NCBI GenBank assembly: GCA_965249835.1
Contig: CBDFMY010000003.1
Span: forward strand, 737,979-801,978
DNA length: 64,000 nucleotides
Direction of reading: 5' to 3'
Origin: Candidatus Poriferihabitaceae bacterium
GTDB taxonomy: Bacteria > Pseudomonadota > Gammaproteobacteria > Arenicellales > Poriferihabitantaceae
This document shows, piece after piece, positions 4,471 through 52,183 of the stretch. The notes under the pieces are model-generated. The model was not told the origin of the DNA and did not search any database. It was given only the letters and a program-made list of their open reading frames with translations. Both the position numbers and the translations under genes were made by a program. The first letter of the stretch is position 1; each line of letters begins with the position of its first letter.

Positions 4471-4562
4471 ATGGCAACTCCTTATATTGATTCCGGAAAA
4501 TCAAGAGGCTACCGCATCTCACCTTTCCTTCATCGGTGAAGTTGCACTTAAGAGTTGAATCC
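3475..4562 (-). mobile_element. IS30-family insertion sequence (about 1.09 kb) with imperfect terminal inverted repeats
   Basis: The inverted repeats are gaattcaacctcaaagtgcaactt (3475-3498) and the reverse complement of aagttgcacttaagagttgaatcc (4539-4562), matching at about 19/24 positions. They enclose an IS30-type transposase reading frame. Confidence 0.8.
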
Positions 4563-4748
4563 AAGCTTCCATACTCGCCACGAAAACATGTATCAATATC
4601 TGCTAAAATCTATCCGAAATCGACCGCTTAAAGTATCTTGAACCTTATAATATGTGGCAGTCTGGCCTTTTTGCCATTCTTGCGAACGCAATATTAGGTG
4701 CTTCGTCGATCTATTGGGCCTTAGTTTAGAGATATTTCACCGATCACA

Positions 4749-5504: not shown

Positions 5505-5580
5505 TTTCGCGACTCCCGCCCACGGGTTGTTCCAATAGGCAAGATGAGTCCGGCTACGCCGCGATGAATAGTGTCGCGCG

Positions 5581-5873
5581 AAGCGCAACAAAGCATGGCG
5601 GAAAATAGGCAAGTGCAAAATTGCGCGCCGCATATTTTTTGTCAGGCAAGGCGCGCAAGGAGCGAGGGAGTGAGCAATACATTAAGTATGTGAGCGACCG
5701 AGCGATGAAGCGCAACAAAGCATGGCGGAAAATAGGCAAGTGCAAAATTGCGCGCCGCATATTTTTTGTCAGGCAAGGCGCGCAAGGAGCGAGGGAGTGA
5801 GCAATACATTAAGTATGTGAGCGACCGAGCGATGAAGCGCAACAAAGCATGGCGGAAAATAGGCAAGTGCAAA
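5581..5873. repeat. Tandem direct repeat, 127-bp unit, about 2.3 copies
   Basis: The unit aagcgcaacaaagcatggcggaaaataggcaagtgcaaaattgcgcgccgcat...gagcgaccgagcgatg starts at 5581, 5708 and 5835. The last copy is partial. Confidence 0.95.
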
Positions 5874-8389: not shown

Positions 8390-8466
8390 TGGTCGGGGTA
8401 GAGAGATTTGAACTCCCGACATCCTGCTCCCAAAGCAGGCGCGCTACCAGGCTGCGCTATACCCCG
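8390..8466 (-). tRNA. tRNA-Pro (anticodon TGG)
   Basis: The reverse complement reads CGGGGTA TA GCGC AGCCTGGTA GCGC G CCTGC TTTGGGA GCAGG ATGTC GGGAG TTCAAAT CTCTC TACCCCG A CCA. Confidence 0.9.
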
Positions 8467-8570: not shown

Positions 8571-8700
8571 CGCAAATTGCGCTTGCTTATTTTCCGCCAT
8601 GCGGTGTTGCGCGTCGTCGCTCGGTCGCTCACATACTTAATGTATTGCTCACTCCCTCGCTTTTCGCGCGCCTTGCCTGACGAAAAATAATCTGCGCACA
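8571..8700. repeat. Inverted, diverged copy (about 1.1 units) of the 127-bp repeat found at 5581-5873
   Basis: The segment tcgctcggtcgctcacatacttaatgtattgctcactccctcgc...gcgccttgcctgac is the reverse complement of the 5581-5873 unit, with a few mismatches. Confidence 0.9.
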
Positions 8701-8760
8701 ATGCGGGGTAGCGACGAGGTAGCGGCGAGGATGACGAAATGTTATGAGCCTATACATGCG

Positions 8761-15726: not shown

Positions 15727-17340
15727 ATGAAAATCATTAAAAAGATATTGCGTATTTTCAGCGCGGTCGTTTTCGCGATGGTGATAAGTAACGCCGCCAT
15801 TGCAGAAACGAAAAGTGAAAGAATTGCAAGGTTGCACATACAAGCCGAGCAGGGAGATGCGGAGCTGCAATATCTTTTGGGCTTTGCATACTGGGATGGC
15901 TACAGAGTGGAAAAAGACCAGCGCGTGGCGGTGCGTTTGTGGCGGATGGCGGTCGAGCAGGGGTATGCGAAGGCGCAAGTTAAGTTGGGCTGGGCATACT
16001 GGCATGGCGAGGGCATTGACGAAGATCAGCGCGAGGCGGTGCGTTTGTGGCACCAAGCAGCCGAGCAAGGGGATGCGGGTGCGCAATCTGCTTTGGGCTA
16101 CGCATATGACAGCGGCGACGGAGTCGATAAAGACCAGCGTGAGGCGGTGCGGTGGTGGCACAAGGCGGCAGAGCAAGGGCAGATGTATGCGCAATATCTT
16201 TTGGGCTATGCATACGATTACGGCGAGGGCATTGACAAAGATAAGCGCGAAGCAGTGCGTTGGTATCGCAAGGCAGCGGAACAAGGGCATGCGGATGCGC
16301 AAGTTAATTTAGGCTATGCATACCGGAATGGCGAAGGAGTTGATAAAGACCCGCGCGAGGCGGTGCGTTGGTATCGCAAGGCGGCCGAGCAGGGGCATGC
16401 GACGGCGCAAAGTAATTTGGGCTATGCATACTCTAATGGGAAAGGTGTTGCTGAGAGCAAACGCGAGGCGATGCGCTGGTTTCGCAAAGCAGCCGAACAA
16501 GGGAATGCGGATGCGCAAAATAATTTGGGCTATGCATACTGGAGTGGTGATGGCGTGATTATGGATAAACGCGAGGCGTATATCTGGTGGTCCATTGCCA
16601 AAGCAAATGGTGATGAGAGGGCAGCGAATAATTTACGCAAAACGGATTGGAACGATTATTTATCCAGTAGCGGAACTCGTGCCGCAAACAAAGAAGCGGC
16701 GCGGCGGTTGGAAGCCATTGAAAATCTCGAAGTAGAGACCGCTTCCGTGCCATCCATCAGCGAAAATATTGCATTGGCAAAACCATCCGGCGGCGTGAGC
16801 ATCGCCGAGAAAGTATTTGAGAACGCATGGCGTTCGGTGGTCATCGTTACCACCGAAGACGGACAGGGTAGCGGCGTGATTATCCGCCCGAATGTGGTGG
16901 CGACCAATTGTCATGTCGTGGATGGTGGGGGCGAAATCATCGTGTATAAATCCGACAATCGCCGCGCCGACACGCCTTTTGCCGCCACCATCCGCCGCGC
17001 CGATGACGAACAGGATTTTTGCTTGCTGGATGTTGCCGGTTTGTGGGGCGTTCCGGCCACGGTGCGGCGCTATGACACGCTCAAAGTCGGCGAGACGGTG
17101 TATGGTTTGGGCGCGCCGCAAGGGTTGGATTTGTCGTTGTCGGACGGGCTGATTTCGCAGTTGCGCGAAATGCGCGGCACGCGGTTCATTCAAACCAACG
17201 CTGCCATATCGCCCGGCTCATCGGGCGGCGGATTGTTCGATGGCGAAGGCAATTTGGTCGGCATTATGACGCTGAAAATCAGTGATGAAAGTGTTGAGGG
17301 TATCGGCTTCGCCATCGCCGCCGATTTGGCGATGGAGTAA
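15727..17340 (+). CDS. Secreted Sel1-repeat (about 7 repeats) / trypsin-like (S1, DegP-type) serine protease fusion
   Basis: The signal peptide is MKIIKKILRIFSAVVFAMVISNAAIA-ET. It is followed by repeated GYAYxxGxGVxKDxREAVRWYRKAAEQG units. The C-terminal domain carries the catalytic triad context NCHVV, DFCLLDV and SPGSSGGGLF. Confidence 0.85.
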   Translation: MKIIKKILRIFSAVVFAMVISNAAIAETKSERIARLHIQAEQGDAELQYLLGFAYWDGYRVEKDQRVAVRLWRMAVEQGYAKAQVKLGWAYWHGEGIDEDQREAVRLWHQAAEQGDAGAQSALGYAYDSGDGVDKDQREAVRWWHKAAEQGQMYAQYLLGYAYDYGEGIDKDKREAVRWYRKAAEQGHADAQVNLGYAYRNGEGVDKDPREAVRWYRKAAEQGHATAQSNLGYAYSNGKGVAESKREAMRWFRKAAEQGNADAQNNLGYAYWSGDGVIMDKREAYIWWSIAKANGDERAANNLRKTDWNDYLSSSGTRAANKEAARRLEAIENLEVETASVPSISENIALAKPSGGVSIAEKVFENAWRSVVIVTTEDGQGSGVIIRPNVVATNCHVVDGGGEIIVYKSDNRRADTPFAATIRRADDEQDFCLLDVAGLWGVPATVRRYDTLKVGETVYGLGAPQGLDLSLSDGLISQLREMRGTRFIQTNAAISPGSSGGGLFDGEGNLVGIMTLKISDESVEGIGFAIAADLAME

Positions 17341-17383
17341 TTGGTTTTTGAAGGAGTCACGCTTTGTGTGACGACACTAAAAA

Positions 17384-17406
17384 GCCCGGCCATGCCGGGC
17401 TTTTTT
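17384..17406 (+). terminator. Rho-independent terminator
   Basis: A gcccggc-cat-gccgggc hairpin is followed by tttttt, 44 nt after the protease stop codon. Confidence 0.75.
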
Positions 17407-17409
17407 CTC

Positions 17410-17700
17410 GTTTGCTTTTGGCGTCTCAATTCGCCTTTGTCCTCTCGGTTCACCATTACCTATCATTTGTCATTGCCCGGCTTGTTCCGGGCAATCCAGT
17501 TGTTAAACTCAGCGGCGTTAGCCGCTATCCTTAAATGGCGGCGAAGCCGCCGCCATTTGCGCGGCTTTGCCGCGTCTGGATTTGCGCGTATCATCCCTGA
17601 TACGCGCCCTTCGGGGCTCGCTTCGCTCGCGAAAAATCGCGCCAGGCGATTTTTCCGCCTGTCGGCGAGAATGACGGGGTGGGTGCTTCGTGTGAAAAAT
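17410..17700. repeat. Copy of the mosaic intergenic repeat family (hairpin modules)
   Basis: It shares modules with 42160-42660, 45590-46240 and 56290-56690. Examples are gtcattgcccggcttgttccgggcaatccagtt, cagcggcgttagccgctatc, and the reverse complement of aatggtgaattgagaggacaaaggcgagttgaga. Confidence 0.85.
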
Positions 17701-42159: not shown

Positions 42160-42660
42160 CAGTTACGCCTGAAGGTGACCTGCGGTAGCCGGACCCGCCG
42201 CCTTTAATAGTCCGGCTATGCTGGGCAACACGCTTTTCGTGTCGTCATTCTGGCTCGAAAAACCGGCGGCGAAGCCGCCGCTATTTGCGCGGCTACGCCG
42301 CGTCTGGATCCCCGCCTGCCGGCGAGGATGACGAATTATAAGTAATGGTGAATTGAGAGGACAAAGGCGAGTTGAGATGCCAAAGCACACGAGAGAAAAA
42401 GTCTGGCTACGCCAGAGCACGTTTTAGTGTCACGCTTTGCGTGACAATTATTTACCATTGTCCTCTCAAAAGGACTCATTGCCTTCCGACTTACCATTGT
42501 CCCCCAACCCGTCATTGCCCGGCTTGTTCCGGGCAATCCAGTTATTAAATCAGCGGCGTTAGCCGCTATCATTACCGGCGGCGAAGCCGCCGCTATTTGC
42601 GCGGCTACGCCGCGTCTGGATCCCCGCCTGCCGGCGAGGATGACGAATACTGATTCTTTC
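42160..42660. repeat. Mosaic intergenic repeat block
   Basis: It contains two copies of cggcggcgaagccgccgctatttgcgcggctacgccgcgtctggatccccgcctgccggcgaggatgacgaat (about 42283 and about 42575). It also contains a 170-bp module (42344-42515) that is about 93% identical to 46004-46175. Confidence 0.9.
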
Positions 42661-42966: not shown

Positions 42967-43992
42967 TTATTCCAGCAACGCCAACACCACCACCGGACGC
43001 AACTCATTCAAGCAGTTCAGATGATCGAGCGGACATTCCCGCTGGAAGCAAGGGCTACATTCCAAGCCAAGGGTAAGGCGGTCGCTTTTGTCGGTCAGCG
43101 GCGGGGTGAAGGCGTCGCTGGACGAGCCGTAAATGGCGATCACATGGCAGCCAACGGCGGCCGCAATGTGCATCAGTCCGGAGTCGTTGGTGACCGCGTA
43201 TTTCGCCAGCGACATCAAATCAACCGCCTCGCCGAGGGTGGTGCGTCCGCAAAGATCGGCGCAGCGTCCCTGGCAAAGTCGGTTGATGTGCGCGGCGATT
43301 TCGCGGTCGTTTTTGGAGCCGAACAACCACACCTGCCAGCCGCGCTGCAATTGCCGATTGGCGACTTCGGCAAAATGCTCGGCCGGCCAACGCTTTGCCG
43401 GACCGTATTCGGCGCCGGGGCAAAGCGCGATGACCGGCGCATCGGTGGCAAGCGCGAAGCGCGACGCGGTCTCGGCAACCATCGCCGGCTTCACCGCCAG
43501 TGCCGGTTGGGGGATGTCGTCCAGGCCCGGTGGCGCGGCTTGTTTGCGCATACCGAGCGCGGCGAATTGTTGCACATTGAGCGGCATCACCCGCTGGTCT
43601 ATAACGCGAATATCGTTCAGCAACCCCCGGCGTTGCTCGCCGAGATAGCCGGTGCGCTGCGGGATTTTCGCGAACCACGGCACCAGCGCCGACTTGAACG
43701 AATTCGGCATGACGATGGCGCGGTCAAAAACCATGCTGCGCAGTTGGCGTCCGAGTCGGTATCTCACGCGCAAACCCAACTCGCCATGCCCAAGCGGCAG
43801 ACAAATCCGGTGCGCGACTTCCGGCATGCGCTCCAGTATCGGCATACTCCAGGCCGGTGCCAACACGGTAATTTCGTTATCAATCTGATTGGATTCAGAC
43901 GCACGCTTCAGCACTTTAAACAAACTTTGCGCCATCACCATATCGCCGACCCATGCCGGACCGACAATCAGGGTTTTTTCATGGTTCGCCAT
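42967..43992 (-). CDS. waaF: ADP-heptose:LPS heptosyltransferase II
   Basis: The 341-aa ORF begins MANHEKTLIVGPAWVGDMVMAQSLFKVLK and contains TNDSGLMHIAAAVG, which is GT9 WaaF-like. Confidence 0.85.
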   Translation of the reverse strand: MANHEKTLIVGPAWVGDMVMAQSLFKVLKRASESNQIDNEITVLAPAWSMPILERMPEVAHRICLPLGHGELGLRVRYRLGRQLRSMVFDRAIVMPNSFKSALVPWFAKIPQRTGYLGEQRRGLLNDIRVIDQRVMPLNVQQFAALGMRKQAAPPGLDDIPQPALAVKPAMVAETASRFALATDAPVIALCPGAEYGPAKRWPAEHFAEVANRQLQRGWQVWLFGSKNDREIAAHINRLCQGRCADLCGRTTLGEAVDLMSLAKYAVTNDSGLMHIAAAVGCHVIAIYGSSSDAFTPPLTDKSDRLTLGLECSPCFQRECPLDHLNCLNELRPVVVLALLE

Positions 43993-45541
43993 GCGCTGGT
44001 CGTATGGTGTTTATCACTTAGTTCAAATACATCCGTGAAGCATTTCAATTGCGCCGGCTTGTTGCGCCAGTCGTGTAGAAAACGCCGACGATCTTTGCGA
44101 TGTTTATGTATAAATATGCGCAATGCGCCGGGGATTTTTGATCGGATCGGCGCGGAAAAATCCTGGGTTTGATCGAGATCAATCAGCGCGATGTCTTGCT
44201 CGGTGACCAACAAATTGTGCGCATTCAAATCGCCATGGTAAATCCGCGCGCGGCGCATTTTTTCCAGCAACGCAACCAACCAACTCAATTCCAACTCGTT
44301 CGGTGGCTGATGCTGATACTTTTGCGCCGCCGTGGGGAACTGGTTGAACGCGCAAACAAAATAACTACCCAGCAGAAATGGCCCCCAGCGTTTTTCCACG
44401 AAAGCAATGGCGCCTGGTGTTTTGATGCCGCTGATTTTTAGCAGATGCGCGTTGCGCCAGGCAATGCGCGCCTTGCTGGTGCGCAAACAATATCGCAACC
44501 CGCGAACAATGGTCTTGCGGTTATAGCGTTTAATAATCACCCCCCCCCCCCCCCCCCCCCCCCGAATTTGGCACGCACCACGGTGGTGGAACGCCCATCT
44601 TTCACCATCTCGGCGCGCGCCATCCAATCATCCGGATTTTGGAAAAACGAAATCAACTCAGCGCAATGATACTTGCGCATCCACACCGCCGTTTGATGCC
44701 AACTTTTATGCACCGCGATTTCACTGCCAACGCGAAAACATTCGGCAAGATAACGATCCTTGCAACGCCGCCACTGGTGGTATCGCGCTTGCGCTTGCGC
44801 GCTATTTATATATGCCTTGATATACTTGAAAAACACGCCGCTGGCGGCACACCAGGCAATTACCAAACCGCGCCAGCCGTCAAGGAAACCCAACTGCAGC
44901 GCATAACTTTTGGCGAAGGTATAACCGGCGCGCAACACCACCAACGCGGGATGGAATACGCGCGCCTGCGGTGCCGCCAACTCGGAGTAATCCCGAATCT
45001 TGTCGATGCGAGCATTAAGATTGGCGGTAGTGTAATGATCGACTCCGCCGGCCAGCAGAATCTTTTTGCTATGCGCGTGCAGCACGATGCCTTCGTGTAC
45101 TTTGGCTTGGGAAAATTCGTGCCGGCGACGATCAAACAAACGCGGAATGTGATCTCGCCCCAAGCCGCCACGCTTGATGTGTTTGCCCATGAAAAAATTA
45201 CGCCGGTCAATTACGCCCAGGCGATTTTCATCGCCGTTGGTATCCCACAACGCCAGCGCATCGCACAGATCAACATCCGCAATTTCGTCCGAGTCGATCG
45301 AGAAAATCCAGTCGTGGGTGGCTTTGGTGACGGCATCTCTTTTCGCGTCTCCGAAGCCATTGAACTCGATTTCAAACACGCGCACATTGGCATATATCGC
45401 GGCCCGCGCGATGGTGTTATCGCTCGATCCAGTGTCGCACACCACGACTTCCTCGAAAACCGCCAACGCCTGCAAGCATTGATCTATGGTGCGCGCCGAA
45501 TCGCAAGTAATCATCACCGCGCTGATGTTTGGAATTTTCAT
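43968..45541 (-). pseudogene. GT2 glycosyltransferase fused to an LPS kinase (Kdo/WaaP/InaA family), out of frame at a poly-G tract
   Basis: ORF 44537-45541 encodes a GT-A domain (ISAVMITCDSARTI, SIDSDE) and the kinase N-lobe, ending ...TTVVRAKFGGGGGGGG*. ORF 43968-44627 continues as GGGGGGGVIIKRYNRK...YHGDLNAHNLLV...IDLD. One additional G would join them into a single protein of about 524 aa. Confidence 0.75.
44540..44563. repeat. Homopolymeric C24 tract (G24 on the coding strand)
   Basis: I counted it directly: c at 44540 through c at 44563. Confidence 0.95.
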
Positions 45542-45589
45542 GTTCTTGAATAAACTTCCCTACTCGTTTTGCGTTTAGTTTACCACGCC

Positions 45590-46240
45590 ATAAAAAGAGG
45601 TATCCGGGGTGGCCGGATACCTTATATTGTGTCATTTCTGCTAAAGCAGAAATGACGGCGTATTTAACTGGATTCCTGCTTCCGCAGGAATGACGGTCCG
45701 GGGCAAATGACGACAAGGGGCAAAGACGGGCTACGCGCAATTTCGCTCCCGCGCGAACTGTCCTGCACCGTATTTCAACTTAGCCCGTCATTCCCGCCGG
45801 CAGGCGGGAATCCAGAGTGGCGGCGTTAGCCGCCGGGACGCGCTCATACAGTAGCGGTAAGCAACAAACACCATCGCCTTGCCGTCATTCTCGCATCGAA
45901 CGGCGCGGCTTCGCCGCAAAGGAGTCCGGCTACGCCGGACGGCATATTCCACTGGATTGCCCGGCCAATAATAATATGGGCCGGGCAATGACAAATGATA
46001 GGCAATGGTGAATTGAGAGGACAAAGGCGAGTTGAGAGGCCAAAGCACACGAGAGAAAATGTCCGGCTACGCCAGAGCACGTTTTAGTGTCACGCTTTGC
46101 GAGACACTTATTTACCATTGTCCTCTCAAAAGGACTTATTGCCTGCCGATTCACCATTGTCCCCCCAGCCCGTCATTCTCGCCGCAGGCGGGAATCCAGT
46201 TAAATATGTCGTCCGGCGTAGCCGGACTCCTTTGAAAGAG
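45590..46240. repeat. Mosaic intergenic repeat block (dRS3-like ATTCC..GGAAT hairpins plus the 170-bp module)
   Basis: It contains the hairpins gtcatttctgctaaagcagaaatgac, attcctgcttccgcaggaat and gtcattcccgccggcaggcgggaatccag. The segment 46004-46175 is homologous to 42344-42515. Confidence 0.85.
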
Positions 46241-46377
46241 TGTGAGTCTCGCTTCAATATGCGCCACGAAAATAGGTGTCAATATCTGCTAAAATCTATC
46301 CGAAATCACCGCTTAAAGTATCTTGAACCTAAAGTAATTATTTAGTTCAGCCAACTTGCGGGCAAAGTGCCAATTTC

Positions 46378-47173
46378 CTAATTTTTGCCAAAAACTTCGG
46401 AAAAACATTGTAACTGTTCTGGTTTGCTCTTCCAATCACGCAAAAACCTGCTTTTGTCTTTGCGGTGTTGGCACAAAAACTGGTGCGAGGTTTTCGATGA
46501 AAAATCTTTCACCGAATTAATGTCAATGGCTATTATTCCGTCATCACTTATCAATATATTATCCGCATGGAAATCGCGGTAGTAAATCTGCGCCAGAAAT
46601 AATGTTTCCAGCAGTTTTTTGAACCAGATAATCTCTTGTTTGGTTGGCAGTTGATACTGGTATTTCTCCGCCGCTGTTGGAAAATCATTGAACGCACAAA
46701 CATAATAAGAATCCAAACGAAATGGCCCCCAGCGTTTTTCCACGAAAGCATATGGGGCTGGCGTTGCGATGCCACTAAATAGCAGTAGATGAGCATTTTT
46801 CCAGCAACTGCGTGCTTTGGTTGCACGCAGGCTATGCCGCAATTTGCGGAAAATAGTTTTTGTGTTAGCGTGTTTAATAGCCGCCTTGTAGCGTTTAATC
46901 ACTACCCCCCCCCCCCCCGAATTTCGCGTACACGACCGTGGTCAAACCATCGTCTTTCATCATAACGCCGCCTTCAATCCATGCGTCCGGATTTTGCAAA
47001 AAAGAAATCAGCTCAGCGCAATAATGCGCGCGCACCCACACCGCCACTTGACGCCAACCCTTGTGCGTCTCAATTTCACTGCTATTGCGAAAGCATTGCT
47101 TGAGATAGTAATCTTTATGCTGTCGCCATTTCTTGCTACCGAGCCGTCCGGCGGTTTTTGGTGCGGTGTTCAT
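46378..47173 (-). pseudogene. LPS kinase (Kdo/WaaP/InaA family) paralogue, out of frame at a poly-G tract
   Basis: The N-terminal ORF reads MNTAPK...DDGLTTVVYAKFGGGGGSD* and the C-terminal ORF reads (V)IKRYKAAIKH...YYRDFHADNILI...IDIN. Both halves are homologous to 43968-44770. A tract of 13 or 16 G would restore a protein of about 264 aa. Confidence 0.75.
46905..46918. repeat. Homopolymeric C14 tract (G14 on the coding strand)
   Basis: I counted it directly. It sits at the position equivalent to the C24 tract in the paralogue. Confidence 0.95.
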
Positions 47174-47415
47174 CAATAACCATCCATCTCCCGATACGGT
47201 TCATATCTCCCCGGTCCGAATAAACTCATCGGATACGCCGCGGCGTTGATGAACGACTTGACGCCACGCCAGCGTTGACCGGGCAGGAATATCGCGAACG
47301 GCAACAGGACAACGCCTTTGACAAAATAAAACAACGCGCCGGCCAGGATGTGCGTCGCCGGTTTTGCGTTGTTGATGCGGAACAGATACGTGGCGATGCT
47401 TGCAGAAATCAGCAT
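47173..47415 (-). pseudogene. Orphan 3' fragment of a GT2 glycosyltransferase gene (paralogous to 49511-49740)
   Basis: Its 80-aa translation, ...KPATHILAGALFYFVKGVVLLPFAIF...YPMSLFGPGRYEPYREMDGY, aligns with the C-terminus encoded at 49511-49735. No catalytic N-terminal part is present. Confidence 0.7.
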
Positions 47416-47437
47416 AATTTATTAACAAACTGGAACC

Positions 47438-47902
47438 TTAAGAAATGCAAATTTTCGGCAATGCTTGCTTGTTTTTAATATGATAGATATGTTTCGTTTT
47501 ATTACGCAATGAAATCTTTTCGGTGGTTAATTTTCTGCGCGCTGATGGGCTAACGCCTTTGGAAACCCAAACGGGCATAAAATCGAATGCAGAACAATCA
47601 AGAGCGGGATCGTTATTCAGAAAAGTACAGACAAAAGTGGCACCACCTTGTAATTGTGCTTTTACTTTCGTTACATCAGAGATGTTAGTTTTTCTTTCTA
47701 CCAGATAAATACCAGTGATGTTTTGGTTTATATTGAAAAAGATAAATTCATCACATCGTTTTCCAGTAGCATTTCGCTGCATACGAAAAATACAATCCAC
47801 ACAAAAAACAACAGGTCTTGTTACATTTTTCAGTTGGTATTCTGATGGAGGTTGAATTGCGCAACTTGTATGCCTCGCACAAAATTCCTGCTTAATCATC
47901 AT
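47438..47902 (-). CDS. Hypothetical small protein with a possible PD-(D/E)xK nuclease motif, AT-rich
   Basis: The 154-aa ORF contains ...KRCDEFIFFNINQNITGIYLVERKT..., a D...E-x-K arrangement. Its start overlaps the ATPase stop codon by 8-11 nt. Confidence 0.5.
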   Translation of the reverse strand: MMIKQEFCARHTSCAIQPPSEYQLKNVTRPVVFCVDCIFRMQRNATGKRCDEFIFFNINQNITGIYLVERKTNISDVTKVKAQLQGGATFVCTFLNNDPALDCSAFDFMPVWVSKGVSPSARRKLTTEKISLRNKTKHIYHIKNKQALPKICIS

Positions 47903-49412
47903 TGTTATCCCTTTCGTCTAGCAGGCTAATTGTCCGATTATACAAAGCGGAAGAAACCTCTAAATGGTCTTTGGTTAAAATGCCGGTTTCACGATCAAAC
48001 TGGATTTTCTTGACGGCGGTATTTTTGTACTTGCTTCTTCTTGGCTGATTAAATAAATAAACAGAAATTTTTTCTTTGTTTAGTGTTTGTCCGTTAATTT
48101 CAGTACTCGATAGTTTGGCTTGCTTGTTTTCTTTAGCGTTACGTATATCCGCCGCGAGTATACAATTGCCGATTTGCTCCAATATGTTGTCGCTATGGGT
48201 GGTGATTAATACATGAACACCAGCATTGACCAACTGCACTAGAATATTGGATATTTCCACTTGTGCGGCGGGGTGCAGATGGGCTTCCGGCTCTTCAACA
48301 ATAAATAGATCGTCGCAATTAACATGGTGACGAGCGAATAAAGAAACGGGTGCTAGTTCTGAAACCATGGATGACACGCTCATTAACGGCAAATCATGTT
48401 TTTTTCCATCGCTTTCAAACGCATAGCGGAAATCCGGGTAACGCGTCTCAGACATTTGCACATTTATTTCCCCCCCCATGATTTTTTTCTCTATTCCCTT
48501 GCCAATTTCATCAATTTTCTTCCTCTGTTTTTTTCGATCGTGATTATAAAGAGATTTTCGATAAAATCCATATCTTCTTTGAAATCTTCTATCAGCAATG
48601 GAGACATCCATGTTAATTAATTTTTGCATGAAATCCGATAAAACGCCGTTAAAAAGTGGAATGGGTGGTACTTTGCTTAGCCCTGCCATTGGAGCGCGCT
48701 CAATTAAAGCACTGACAAGGGTGCGGTGACTCTGCATGATACCACCACGGATTGCAGGCAAATAATGAGGAACAGTGTGTGCACTAATCCCTTCTTCTTT
48801 GTCTAATAAAGAAGTAGAAAAGTGCTTGTCTAGTATCTCTGCATAATAGCGCTGTATAATATGCCGATGGAATATGGCTCTTTCATCTGGCTCTTCCTCA
48901 TCAAAACGATCTTTAATAATTCTTAACAAATCGTTGTTTATCAATGTGCGCAGTTCCGATTTTTTTTCATCAGTTAACTTACTATTGTCTGGAGAAGATA
49001 AATCTAAAATAAGTTGGTTTTTGCTGTCAGATATTACGATGGAGATTTTTCCATTTTCGTTCATCATCATCTTTCTTCCCTCTTCACCGAAACAGTAAAC
49101 AAACTGCTCTTTCCAGGAGGCGCTGAAAATGTTTGCCCATAGAAGAAAGCGTTTTTCTATTTCTTTTAATGTGACTTGATTTTTTTGTAAACTGGCTAAA
49201 TCCGATTTCTCCCCCTTATCCATTTCCCTTCGAATTTTATAATGCATGTTCTCCCATATATCGCCGTCATCCCCAAACACTTTGATAATTGAATAAATCA
49301 ATATCGCTAGGTAGGATTTTCCCGTATTACTGGGGCCGACAAAAACAGTCATAGGTTTAACATCCACCTCTGCTTTACGAATCGGCCCGAAATTTTTCAC
49401 AATAAGTTTCAT
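47892..49412 (-). CDS. ABC/OLD-type (AAA_15/AAA_21-like) ATPase, AT-rich
   Basis: I chose the start at MKLIVKNFGPI, after a GGGAGGAAA ribosome-binding site. The Walker A motif is GPSNTGKSY, the Walker B/D-loop is LFIVEEPEAHLHP, and the H-loop is ITTHSD. A long helical insertion lies between them. Confidence 0.75.
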   Translation of the reverse strand: MKLIVKNFGPIRKAEVDVKPMTVFVGPSNTGKSYLAILIYSIIKVFGDDGDIWENMHYKIRREMDKGEKSDLASLQKNQVTLKEIEKRFLLWANIFSASWKEQFVYCFGEEGRKMMMNENGKISIVISDSKNQLILDLSSPDNSKLTDEKKSELRTLINNDLLRIIKDRFDEEEPDERAIFHRHIIQRYYAEILDKHFSTSLLDKEEGISAHTVPHYLPAIRGGIMQSHRTLVSALIERAPMAGLSKVPPIPLFNGVLSDFMQKLINMDVSIADRRFQRRYGFYRKSLYNHDRKKQRKKIDEIGKGIEKKIMGGEINVQMSETRYPDFRYAFESDGKKHDLPLMSVSSMVSELAPVSLFARHHVNCDDLFIVEEPEAHLHPAAQVEISNILVQLVNAGVHVLITTHSDNILEQIGNCILAADIRNAKENKQAKLSSTEINGQTLNKEKISVYLFNQPRRSKYKNTAVKKIQFDRETGILTKDHLEVSSALYNRTISLLDERDNNDD

Positions 49413-49510
49413 TTCATTTCCTCCCGTGTTTGATGCGCTGTAGTATAAATCAGAAAATACGAGAGATGCAATCCACATGGTTTCATGTCATCACCCAGCC
49501 GTCCGCGCCA

Positions 49511-50421
49511 TCAATAACCATCCATCTTCCGATACGGTTCATATCTCCCCGGTCCGAATAAACTCATCGGATACGCCACGCTTTTCAGGAATGATTTTCC
49601 ACAACGCAAACGTTGTTCGATGGAGAAAATAGCAAACGGTAACAATACGACACCTTTGATGAAGTAAAAAACCGCTTCAACCAGAATGTGCGTTGCCGGT
49701 TTTTGTTTTTTGGTTCGGTTGGCGTAAGTAAGCACACGAACACGATTATAGTGACGCCTGAGGGTGAACCACCCCCCCTTGATGATGGCCGCGCGCCTCG
49801 GCCGGTGCGGTGTCGGGATTGGCTATCCACGCATTCGCTTTGCAACGCGGGTCGGCGATGAACTGCGCGCCGGCAGCGATGGCACGCTTGCCAAAATCCG
49901 TGTCTCCGCCGCCGGTTAAGTTAAACAACGGGTCATAGCGAATCTTAAGATTGCGGTAAATGCGCGCCGAGATGATGATGTTTCTGGATGGCAGTGGTGG
50001 GTTCTTTACCGCTTTATATTCGCCGTGCGCAGGACCAACGGCATCACCGCCGGTTTCCCGAATAACCGTGTATAAATCTGTCAACCAGGTCGCGCTCACC
50101 GGTCCCTCATCGTCATCAGTGCTGGCGATGTAGTCGGCGCCGATTTTGATTGCGTAGTCGAACAGATGATTACGAATGTTGCTGTGTCCGCGTTCGGCGC
50201 ACACGCGGTAATTCACTGGAAAAGGCGCATTGCAAGCAAACTCTTCCACGACTTCGCGCGCTTTCATCTTTGTCGTTATCGGCAACGACCATACGCACCT
50301 CGACGTTTTCGGGAAGCGCGCTCTCGCCGATGGATTGCAAACATATCGCCAGCATCCGTGGACGCATACAGGTCGGTATGCCAATCAGTATCAGCGGTTG
50401 CGGTGCTTTGGCGCGATTCAT
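49511..50421 (-). pseudogene. GT2 (GT-A fold) glycosyltransferase with two frame disruptions
   Basis: The N-terminus reads MNRAKAPQPLILIGIPTCMRPRMLAICLQSI...ADNDKDES in frame 1. It continues as AREVVEEF...ASTDDDEGP in frame 2, with the switch near the (CG)n run at 50255-50261. It then continues as W FTLRRHYN...PMSLFGPGRYEPYRKMDGY in frame 3, after the G7 tract at 49772-49778. Confidence 0.65.
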
Positions 50422-51245
50422 TTCGCCGCCCCGAAATACCACCCCAGCGCAAACATGGCAATCGCCACAACCAGCCGCAACAAACGCCCACGATATTTTG
50501 TCCATCGGGTATCATAATTTCGCACATGCTTGCCGAAGCCGGTGTGTTTGACCGCATCGTTTTCCAAAAGCACAGTGAAATAACCCTGCGCGGCGTAGTG
50601 TTCGCTTGCGATCATTTCCATGTCGGCCAGTGATTGTCCCTTTGCCACCAACGATGCATAGCCACCGTCCGGATATTGCGCTCGTCGCCGCAAACCCGGA
50701 TTGAAAGAAAAACACTGGCTATGGGAAAGCGTGGTATTGACTCGGTAATACGCAATGCTTTGCACCGTTTTCCGCTCAGCAAGAACCCAGGCACACGCGC
50801 CATAAAAAGCAAGGTCATGATGATAACTCCGCAAGTGCACCATCAAGGATTGCGGCTCCGCCTCCAGCACTGTTTTGGAGTCTTCGATAAAACCCGGGCG
50901 GTAAAACAACCAGTCGTCTTCGCAGTGAAAAATATAGTCGGTCTTTACTAACCGATACGCTGTATCAATGGCCGAAACCTGGCCAATTTGCGGCTGGTTG
51001 ATAATCAAATCGATTCGCTCACGATATTCTGCCGGAATGATATTGCGAACCTCGTCCTTGCCGGAATCCTCGATTAAAATGAATTGTGAAATGGGATAAG
51101 TGTTGTGTTGAAAAAAACTATGCAATGTTTGTGCAAGCAGATTAAACCGGCCGCAACTGGTCAGAACGACGGTGACATCGCTGGTTTTGGAAAACAGGTT
51201 ATCCATTTGCAGATTGTGCGGAGAAATCAAATAGTGATTGCCCAT
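50418..51245 (-). CDS. Glycosyltransferase (GT-A-like) with a C-terminal membrane anchor
   Basis: The 275-aa ORF contains VTVVLTSCGRFNLLAQTLHSF, LIEDSG and HCEDDW (DxD-like) motifs. Its stop codon overlaps the next start codon (ATGA). Confidence 0.6.
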   Translation of the reverse strand: MGNHYLISPHNLQMDNLFSKTSDVTVVLTSCGRFNLLAQTLHSFFQHNTYPISQFILIEDSGKDEVRNIIPAEYRERIDLIINQPQIGQVSAIDTAYRLVKTDYIFHCEDDWLFYRPGFIEDSKTVLEAEPQSLMVHLRSYHHDLAFYGACAWVLAERKTVQSIAYYRVNTTLSHSQCFSFNPGLRRRAQYPDGGYASLVAKGQSLADMEMIASEHYAAQGYFTVLLENDAVKHTGFGKHVRNYDTRWTKYRGRLLRLVVAIAMFALGWYFGAAK

Positions 51246-51416: not shown

Positions 51417-52183
51417 ATGTATTTGCTCTATCTCGATGGATCGGGAACAGTCAAAAACCCGAACGAACGCCATTTCATTCTGGCTGGCGTCGCTGTGTTT
51501 GAGCGTCAAGTATATCACCTCATTCGCAAAACCGATGAATTCGTCTCCTCGCTCAACGTAGGGAACCCTCACGATGCGGAGTTGCATGGTAGCGTGATGG
51601 CAAACGGAAAATCCGCTCCATGGAAAGGAATAGCACGACAAAACCGCTTGGAAATTATTGAGCGGGGATTGAACTTGCTATCCACCGCGCATCAAAGCGT
51701 GAGAACATTTGCAGTAGTCGTAGACCATTTGCAGTAGTCGTAGACAAACAAGCCTGCACGCTGGATGACCCCGTTGAATATGCATTCGAGGAAATTAGTA
51801 ACCGTTTCGATTTGTTTCTGAGGCGGTTATACAGGCGAGATGGGAACCAGCAACGCGGATTGGTCATCATGGATGAGTCGCATTATGAAGAGTCGTTACA
51901 AGGGTTGGCCAAGCGTTTTCGCGAAGAGGGCACCCGATGGGGAGTGTTCCCCAATCTTGCCGAAGTCCCATTATTTGTAGACTCCGCCGCTTCACGCTTG
52001 ATTCAACTTGCGGACCTTTTGGCGTGGGCTGTTTGGAGACGTTATGAGCATCATGACACACGCTATTTCGATTCAGTTGTCGGTAGATTCGACAAAGAAG
52101 GTGGCACCATTCACGGTTTGGTACACCGCAAACGCTCCGCAGATGAGTGTCACTGTCCCGCTTGCATGTCCCGAGCAAATTGA
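51417..52183 (+). pseudogene. DUF3800 family protein, disrupted by a 20-bp tandem duplication
   Basis: The N-terminus MYLLYLDGSGTV... is typical of DUF3800. The frame breaks at the duplicated catttgcagtagtcgtagac (51706-51725 and 51726-51745). Removing one copy gives a continuous ...RTFAVVVDKQACTLDDPVEYAFEE... that joins ORF 51812-52183. Confidence 0.7.

Follow-up and report, generated by a model that had tools for sequence, protein, structure and literature searches.

PD-T4-4, a two-gene system of E. coli ECOR58 listed as 'ATPase, nuclease', has been validated in phage defence (PMC9519451, Tables S1 and S2; Vassallo 2022) and is grouped with systems that combine a PD-(D/E)xK nuclease with an NTPase (bioRxiv 2025.07.10.664194). 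WonAB, carried by the WASA-1 prophage of V. cholerae, consists of an OLD-type ABC ATPase and a 16-kDa 'novel REase'; a relationship to PD-T4-4 is drawn by the authors who described it (PMC12137116; Adams 2025). That paper cites Krishnan et al. 2020 for operons of the type 'OLD-ABC ATPase + novel REase'. A further entry, PDC-M47, is an untested phage-defence candidate of PADLOC-DB v2, for which we found no describing publication in the literature. Here we report a gene pair of this general design, encoding a 506-residue ATPase and a 154-residue putative nuclease, in a 64,000-nt stretch of a Candidatus Poriferihabitaceae bacterium genome (assembly GCA_965249835.1, contig CBDFMY010000003.1, positions 737,979 to 801,978; hereafter the window). 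Judging from sequence comparisons, the pair is likely to serve in anti-phage defence as a member of the family that couples an OLD-type ABC ATPase with a small PD-(D/E)xK nuclease, represented by PD-T4-4, WonAB and PDC-M47. Though divergent, it falls within a family that is described and validated, and is not a new kind of system.

The two genes are encoded on the minus strand (Table 1) and overlap by 11 nt, with the ATG of the nuclease gene preceding the ATPase stop codon, or by 8 nt if a second ATG is counted, in agreement with the 8–11 nt reported in the initial annotation of this DNA. The start codon assigned to the ATPase (MKLIVKNFGP...) has a GGAGG Shine-Dalgarno element ahead of it, and homologues start at the same position. 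GC content is 38.2% for the pair, 52–55% in the 8-kb flanks and 53% in the window as a whole. The contrast in composition noted initially is therefore real, while the 55–60% GC then quoted for the neighborhood is slightly high. The same foreign signature was seen in 17 of 17 loci, where the pair lies 10–24 percentage points below its own flanks. Promoter and terminator scans returned no more sites than shuffled sequence, and hence we claim no promoter. No Rfam family matched between 45000 and 50500, and exact-sequence queries with either window protein, or with the identical P0001, returned no record.

All of the ATPase motifs noted initially could be located in the translation: a Walker A motif, GPSNTGKS, at residue 26 (K32); EEPEAHLHP at 373 (Walker B, with catalytic E373-E374); and an H-loop, TTHS, at 404 (H406). 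To these can be added YLPAIR, whose R222 is invariant in the family alignment, a degenerate ABC signature (SSMVSE at 347) and a C-terminal extension spanning residues ~420 to 506. Matches to Pfam AAA_15 and AAA_21, together with those in PADLOC, bear out the assignment as an ABC/OLD-type defence ATPase. Among 92 PADLOC families, the best match was PD-T4-4_A (PDLC04033, 1.3e-39; PDLC04032, 9.7e-29). Ranked lower were PDC-M47A (1.2e-31), then NsnB and AriA (4.2e-23), with Old and GajA far behind; the GajA profiles cover only the ATPase core, at ~1e-11. NCBIfam yielded transporter matches only, far under the cut-offs. An AlphaFold (AF2) model with a predicted local distance difference test score (pLDDT) of 81 shows an ABC fold, the nearest solved folds being PtuA of Septu, retron-associated PtuA and SMC heads. 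Sequence searches of the PDB with the ATPase and with the nuclease profile gave no match.

For comparison with WonAB, we used the 9 WonB and 7 WonA homologue sequences of Supplementary Table 4 in PMC12137116. Profile–profile alignment (hhalign) of the ATPase family with the WonA homologues gave a probability of 99.8% (E 5e-29) over residues 303–489, which take in the C-terminal extension. The YLPAIR motif matches FIPAxR, a conserved motif of the WonA homologues; P178 and R181 are invariant in their alignment. By residue numbering, we take R222 of the window ATPase to be the counterpart of the essential WonA R182.

The 154-residue partner matched nothing in Pfam, PADLOC, PHROGs or NCBIfam. A word-indexed search identified 26 relatives, and in their alignment (A1) residues D36, D51, E52, E69, K71 and Q85-G-G are invariant, with C50 preceding D51, a PD-(D/E)xK layout. 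The AF2 model is confident (pLDDT 90; predicted template modelling score 0.87), and nearly all Foldseek matches in the PDB are restriction-fold enzymes. They comprise BsmI, R.BspD6I (small subunit, probability 0.9), NucS/EndoMS, Bse634I, EcoO109I, Cap4, Can2 and the cap-snatching endonucleases of bunya- and arenaviruses. These data support the PD-(D/E)xK nuclease suggested at the outset and, with no HNH, TOPRIM or DUF4435 match in Pfam or PADLOC, the exclusion of those three types as well.

Distant relatives connect this protein to the described effectors. When the A1 profile was run against 1.84 billion cluster representatives, 158 proteins were recovered, nearly all of ~150 residues, and 114 of them were aligned (A2). 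D51 and E69 are invariant in A2, and C50, K71 and Q83 nearly so. PADLOC models recognize part of this set: PDC-M47B (PDLC04668) matches 53 of the 114 and the PD-T4-4_B models 10 of the 114 (best E 1.1e-6), with P0170 among the bridging members (1.8e-25 to the family profile, 1.4e-7 to PDC-M47B). Aligned with WonB by hhalign, the broad A2 alignment gave a probability of 96.2% (E 2.1e-9) and placed D36, C50-D51, E69-x-K71 and Q85 on the invariant D, CD, ELK and Q of WonB. A hidden Markov model built from A2 also detects the 'novel REase' of E. faecium, at 1.2e-6. In this register K71 of the window nuclease falls opposite the lysine of the ELK motif in the WonB homologues. We take this lysine to be K71 of WonB, mutation of which abolishes defence (PMC12137116).

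Taken system by system, the likeness to PD-T4-4 comprises a two-gene operon of adjacent, co-oriented genes for an ABC/P-loop ATPase and a PD-(D/E)xK nuclease, in addition to the PD-T4-4_A match. The window nuclease, however, has no PD-T4-4_B match, and PADLOC would consequently not call the system, a comparison made through profiles only. PD-T4-4 resides on an integrative and conjugative element of E. coli, whereas the window clade occurs in sponge-associated metagenome-assembled genomes. WonAB shares with the window pair the ATPase motifs GPxxxGKS, [FY][IL]PAxR, SS..xE, EEPEAHL.P and TTHS, the homologous C-terminal extension, a partner of similar size (17.7 kDa in the window, 16 kDa for WonB) and, as aligned through the broad A2 profile, the D...CD...ExK...Q layout with the catalytic lysine at residue 71. 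It differs in its signature motif (SSGQQE in WonA versus SSMVSE), in being prophage-borne, which the window pair is not, and in its shorter ATPase, that of the window being ~80–100 residues longer, in inserts. For PDC-M47, the ATPase model (PDC-M47A) matches and the nuclease model (PDC-M47B) fails on the window protein. The architecture of Septu, PARIS and Gabija, which had been proposed as a parallel, applies at the level of the ATPase superfamily and no further. All three share with the window pair the logic of an ABC ATPase sensor joined to a nuclease effector; however, PtuB of Septu is an HNH protein (although PtuA is the nearest solved ATPase fold), AriB of PARIS is a DUF4435/TOPRIM protein, and Gabija has a TOPRIM domain fused in GajA plus the helicase GajB, whereas the window cassette contains neither a TOPRIM domain nor a helicase gene and has a stand-alone PD-(D/E)xK protein as its effector.

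The initial annotation had called the pair a candidate uncharacterised defence system. With the ATPase mapping to PD-T4-4_A, and the PD-T4-4/WonAB architecture already described, the claim of novelty largely fails on its own terms. This mapping is confident for the ATPase; for the nuclease, which has no profile match, the link is remote and transitive.

Several observations weigh against membership in this family or against the function that it would imply. No match of the 154-residue protein to the PD-T4-4_B and PDC-M47B models was obtained even at E≤1. Its homology to WonB is transitive, running through distant relatives, since the narrow A1 profile aligns to WonB with a probability of only 25% (E 7.6e-4), albeit in an unchanged register. 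The Foldseek matches of the nuclease model have weak E-values (0.03 to 0.5), and BLASTP of the ATPase against WonA reaches ~1e-11 at best, over conserved motifs only. Among close copies, dN/dS is 0.44–0.6, indicating moderate constraint only. The comparators are exclusively metagenome-assembled genomes, and frameshifts in neighboring genes of the window mean that this genome may be decaying or that the assembly may hold indel errors. Finally, the RNA target is a supposition in WonAB too, and the clade studied here is known from sequences alone.

Linkage of the two genes in other genomes had been set as a check on the original proposal, and we examined it in 18 loci encoding the small protein, 16 from a genome collection and 2 from an assembly index. 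All 16 of the former are metagenome-assembled genomes, mostly of lineages that are sponge-associated by name; named hosts include Ca. Spongiihabitans, Porisulfidus, Poriferihabitaceae, Arenicellales, Pseudohongiella, Halieaceae and Binatia. In 17 of the 18 loci the ATPase gene immediately precedes the small gene, and the same adjacency is found for the distant members P0170 and P0255. In the exception, L015 (10001–10354), the small gene lacks its first 35 codons and no ATPase gene accompanies it, while its neighbors, including a 393-residue AAA_15/AAA_21 ATPase, match those of L010; this copy is probably a decayed remnant.

A Type III restriction system surrounds the pair in six loci (L002, L005, L006, L009, L011 and L018), and partly in L007, with mod on one side and res on the other. 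The genes form a tight, co-oriented cluster in the order Mod methyltransferase (PADLOC 5.7e-158), ATPase, nuclease, AriA/AriAB/NsnB-like ABC ATPase and ResIII/Res-like helicase. Recurrence in this position supports a defence role. These operons, exemplified by L009 (5853–15249), hold two distinct ABC-ATPase modules between mod and res; the ATPase of the second is 552 residues long, and its C-terminal region aligns to the AriB part of AriAB. As for phages, tblastn of the small protein against INPHARED gave no match and a scan of IMG/VR with A1 found no relatives, and hence the module is not evidently phage-borne. A search of IMG/VR for WASA-1 with the wonB quantitative PCR primer also gave no match.

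Analogy with WonAB allows a mechanism to be proposed. The ATPase would dimerise head to head around two ATP, and the nuclease would dock on the C-terminal extensions of the dimer, much as the extension of WonA is predicted to hold WonB. The ATPase would be required either to activate or to stabilise the nuclease. Phage infection, via some cue, would trigger ATP-dependent licensing of the nuclease, which would cleave some part of the translation machinery; tRNA or rRNA is a more probable target than bulk DNA. Protein synthesis would then stop, and infection would abort without lysis. In the case of WonAB, genomic DNA is left intact and phage DNA goes on replicating, while translation is arrested and infection is abortive, without lysis (PMC12137116). 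Complex formation, trigger, RNA target and abortive outcome are all inferred here from these relatives, and we regard the chance that this clade targets RNA or translation as about even.

An alternative is that the pair acts as a restriction-like system on DNA and not on translation, with an ATPase that recognizes DNA ends or foreign DNA, as do those of OLD, Gabija and Septu, and a nuclease that cuts phage DNA directly. Some of the structural evidence points this way, in that the closest folds to the nuclease are DNA endonucleases (BsmI, R.BspD6I and NucS) and the nearest solved folds to the ATPase, PtuA and SMC heads, bind DNA; the embedding in Type III restriction operons would fit as well. 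Yet the E. coli PD-T4-4 system (EcPD-T4-4) cut 0 of 11 DNA substrates in vitro, which fits a non-DNA target or the need for a viral cue, and the DNA findings for WonAB argue in the same direction, although the window clade is distant from both systems. We consider DNA targeting unlikely.

Nor does it seem probable that the genes form a toxin–antitoxin or addiction module, with the nuclease as toxin and the ATPase as antitoxin, that serves mainly to stabilise its own DNA. The pair is small, overlapping, foreign in composition and horizontally mobile, with an effector predicted to be toxic; the ATPase matches AAA_21, whose Pfam name is 'putative AbiEii toxin'; and over-production of WonB is toxic (PMC12137116). 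That toxicity, however, requires the ATPase activity of WonA, WonB being harmless without WonA (PMC12137116), which rules out simple sequestration in WonAB, and both the recurrent place between mod and res and the phage protection conferred by PD-T4-4 and WonAB point to defence. A housekeeping or lipopolysaccharide (LPS)-related role (for example, an export or repair ATPase of the ABC type aided by an accessory protein) might be suggested by the location of the window pair in a cluster of GT2, GT9 and Kdo/WaaP-kinase genes, but the pair contains no membrane domain, has no transporter partner and matches NCBIfam transporter models only far below cut-off. It is also missing from the same locus in related genomes (L019–L022), lies in unrelated contexts elsewhere and has a foreign GC content in every host. 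Empty sites and shifting contexts together effectively refute this idea, which we judge extremely improbable. Defence by a PD-T4-4/WonAB-type module accordingly remains our preferred reading.

The surroundings of the pair in the window contain genes for GT2, GT4, GT9 (heptosyltransferase) and Kdo/WaaP-type kinase proteins, and the label of LPS locus given initially is a fair one. The genome of Ca. Spongiihabitans sp. (order Arenicellales; L003) is collinear with window positions 43000–51195 at 96.5% identity, and in L001 and L023 the pair occupies the identical position. In four related genomes (L019–L022) the site is empty: the GT2 gene c10 (protein 72–76% identical) is followed directly by another GT2 gene, c11, with a gap of 0–12 nt, and neither the ATPase nor the nuclease gene is found. 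In L022, the c10 stop codon and c11 start codon overlap. These data confirm that the pair is an insertion, as had been proposed, and show that it was inserted at a GT2/GT2 (c10/c11) junction rather than at the GT2–kinase junction originally named.

Flanking the insertion is a direct repeat (47171–47380 and 49509–49718) of 210 nt with 78% identity, far beyond chance. The last 67–69 nt differ by a single base, so that the 67-bp repeat with one mismatch described before is real but forms part of a longer one. The right copy (R1) is indeed the 3' end of a GT2 gene and the left copy (R2) an orphan GT2 fragment, as had been claimed; the GT2 gene of R1 is, however, frameshifted in the window, and the two ends of R2 have different affinities. 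Its 5' 176 nt are cassette-like, with 94.3% identity to the copy in L004 (a Halieaceae genome, order Cellvibrionales), while its last 67 nt, ending ...GGTTATTGA, are host-like, with 77.6% identity to L004. The 5' part thus belongs to the cassette with which it travels and not to a local paralogue. An 80-residue open reading frame in R2 was considered as a third gene of the system and rejected: it occurs in none but the closest copies, has an internal deletion in L001 and L023, as does the repeat itself, and corresponds to the GT2 3' fragment.

Two frameshifts interrupt c10 in the window: a (GC)n tract near 50261 differs by 2 nt and a poly-G tract near 49778 by 1 nt (G7 versus G6 in L003). The gene is intact, at 331 residues, in L003 and L001. 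Phase variation of an LPS glycosyltransferase gene by strand slippage could account for the indels, as could homopolymer assembly error. A 1.9-kb extra block (45542–47429), present in the window and L003 and absent from L001 and L023, carries repetitive extragenic palindromic (REP)-like repeats, a kinase paralogue and a c11-like fragment. The kinase paralogue has ~40% GC and takes its Kdo family name from precomputed Pfam matches in L001. The portion at 46378–47176 is 71–75% identical to the resident kinase/c11 junction (44308–44761), and this part of the block looks like what remains of an older copy of the locus or of a foreign one.

L004 has only the cassette in common with the window. The genes on either side there are unrelated; from their translations they look like genes for an alkyl-sulfatase-like protein with a metallo-β-lactamase fold and for a wax-ester-synthase-like protein. 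The order of elements is R1, 30-nt segment, leader, ATPase, nuclease, R2 in the window and leader, ATPase, nuclease, R, 30-nt segment in L004, i.e. the unit (2338 nt and 2336 nt, respectively) is circularly permuted. Identity between the two copies is 95.5% for the genes and 90% (27/30) for the 30-nt segment, which in L004 is found at the other end of the unit. Synonymous divergence (dS) between the window and L004 copies is 0.08, no greater than that between the window and L001, and thus the transfer between orders was recent. The permutation implies a circular or tandem intermediate, as simple linear transfer cannot yield it. Such a form would be marked by a junction running from the R2 end through the 30-nt segment into ATGTGGATTGC.

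The cassette entered the LPS-core locus between c10 and c11, and the 3' end of c10 was duplicated in the process. The most likely route is a single crossover in which a circular or tandem intermediate bearing a c10-like fragment recombined with the 3' end of chromosomal c10; the switch within R2 from cassette-like to host-like sequence is the trace that such a crossover would produce. No integrase or transposase gene lies near the cassette. We also considered an integron attC or dif-like border and rejected it, as inspection of the junctions by eye revealed neither a GTTRRRY/RYYYAAC core nor a dif-like sequence, and no integrase is nearby. In L004, the left cassette border coincides with a perfect hairpin, TTGTAGAC-AGACTC-GTCTACAA (~8395–8416), and ATGAA microhomology occurs near both ends of the unit. 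One speculative reading is that the 2.3-kb unit is a recombinase-less mobile defence cassette that circularises or amplifies in tandem, uses the GT2 3' fragment as a homology anchor and crosses between unrelated bacteria of the sponge microbiome. We think this doubtful, and leave it open on account of the circular permutation, the breakpoint within the repeat, the empty sites and the lack of a nearby integrase or transposase gene. If true, the anchor would allow single-crossover integration into LPS-core loci, which specify phage receptors.

Table 1. Features of the cassette and its insertion locus (window coordinates).
Feature	Coordinates	Strand	Remarks
GT2 gene c11	44537..45541	-	Pfam Glycos_transf_2; directly after c10 in empty-site genomes
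Extra block: 93-aa 3' fragment of c11-like GT2 and AT-rich Kdo/WaaP-type kinase paralogue (174 aa)	46378..47176	-	
Left repeat copy R2, orphan 3' fragment of c10-like GT2 gene	47171..47415	-	74-codon fragment, 80-aa ORF (open reading frame)
Putative PD-(D/E)xK nuclease, 154 aa; WonB/PD-T4-4_B/PDC-M47B-like effector	47438..47902	-	
ABC (OLD-type) ATPase, 506 aa	47892..49412	-	Start at 49412; longest ORF form 47892-49478
66-nt leader with GGAGG ribosome-binding site	49413..49478	-	95.5% identical to L004; Halieaceae-shared homology starts at 49478
30-nt segment, TGGCGCGGACGGCTGGGTGATGACATGAAACC, after GT2 3'-end repeat	49479..49508	-	Upstream of ATPase in window; circular-permutation marker
Right repeat copy R1, native 3' end of c10	49509..49718	-	
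c10, family-2 glycosyltransferase gene, upstream neighbor of insertion	49511..50505	-	tblastn: three frames

Other features of the window deserve brief mention. The REP-like repeats are GC-rich, contain palindromes and share 80–100% identity; they occur at 45600–46350, 42262–42648, 17373–17608, 56296–56416, 5580–5833 (an exact 127-nt tandem duplication), 8580–8703 and 4550–4621, and are found in L001, L003 and L023 as well. A DUF3800-family gene (51417–52183, plus strand), intact at 248 residues in L001, is split in the window into open reading frames of 106 and 123 residues by a 20-nt insertion relative to L001 (~51702–51721), apparently a local duplication. Two arrays of 108-nt (36-codon) tandem repeats with ~70–75% identity, at 15832–16671 and 18799–20082, lie 3.4 kb apart with their flanks duplicated (16646–17049 versus 20045–20448), and look like two paralogous genes for repeat proteins.

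These findings leave the present picture of how such systems work unchanged. The points of some interest are the nuclease missed by profiles, the recurrence in Type III operons and the permuted cassette with its recent cross-order transfer. As a circularly permuted copy in another order, the L004 unit offers a small, clean example of defence-cassette movement without a recombinase. The nuclease half of this clade escapes present defence-finder profiles, so that such systems are under-counted, and our alignments could seed a better profile. If our assignment is correct, the range of the PD-T4-4/WonAB family would extend into uncultured sponge symbionts of the Arenicellales, Cellvibrionales, Pseudomonadales and Binatia, and 'guilt by embedding' in Type III restriction systems would back a defence role for the family as a whole.

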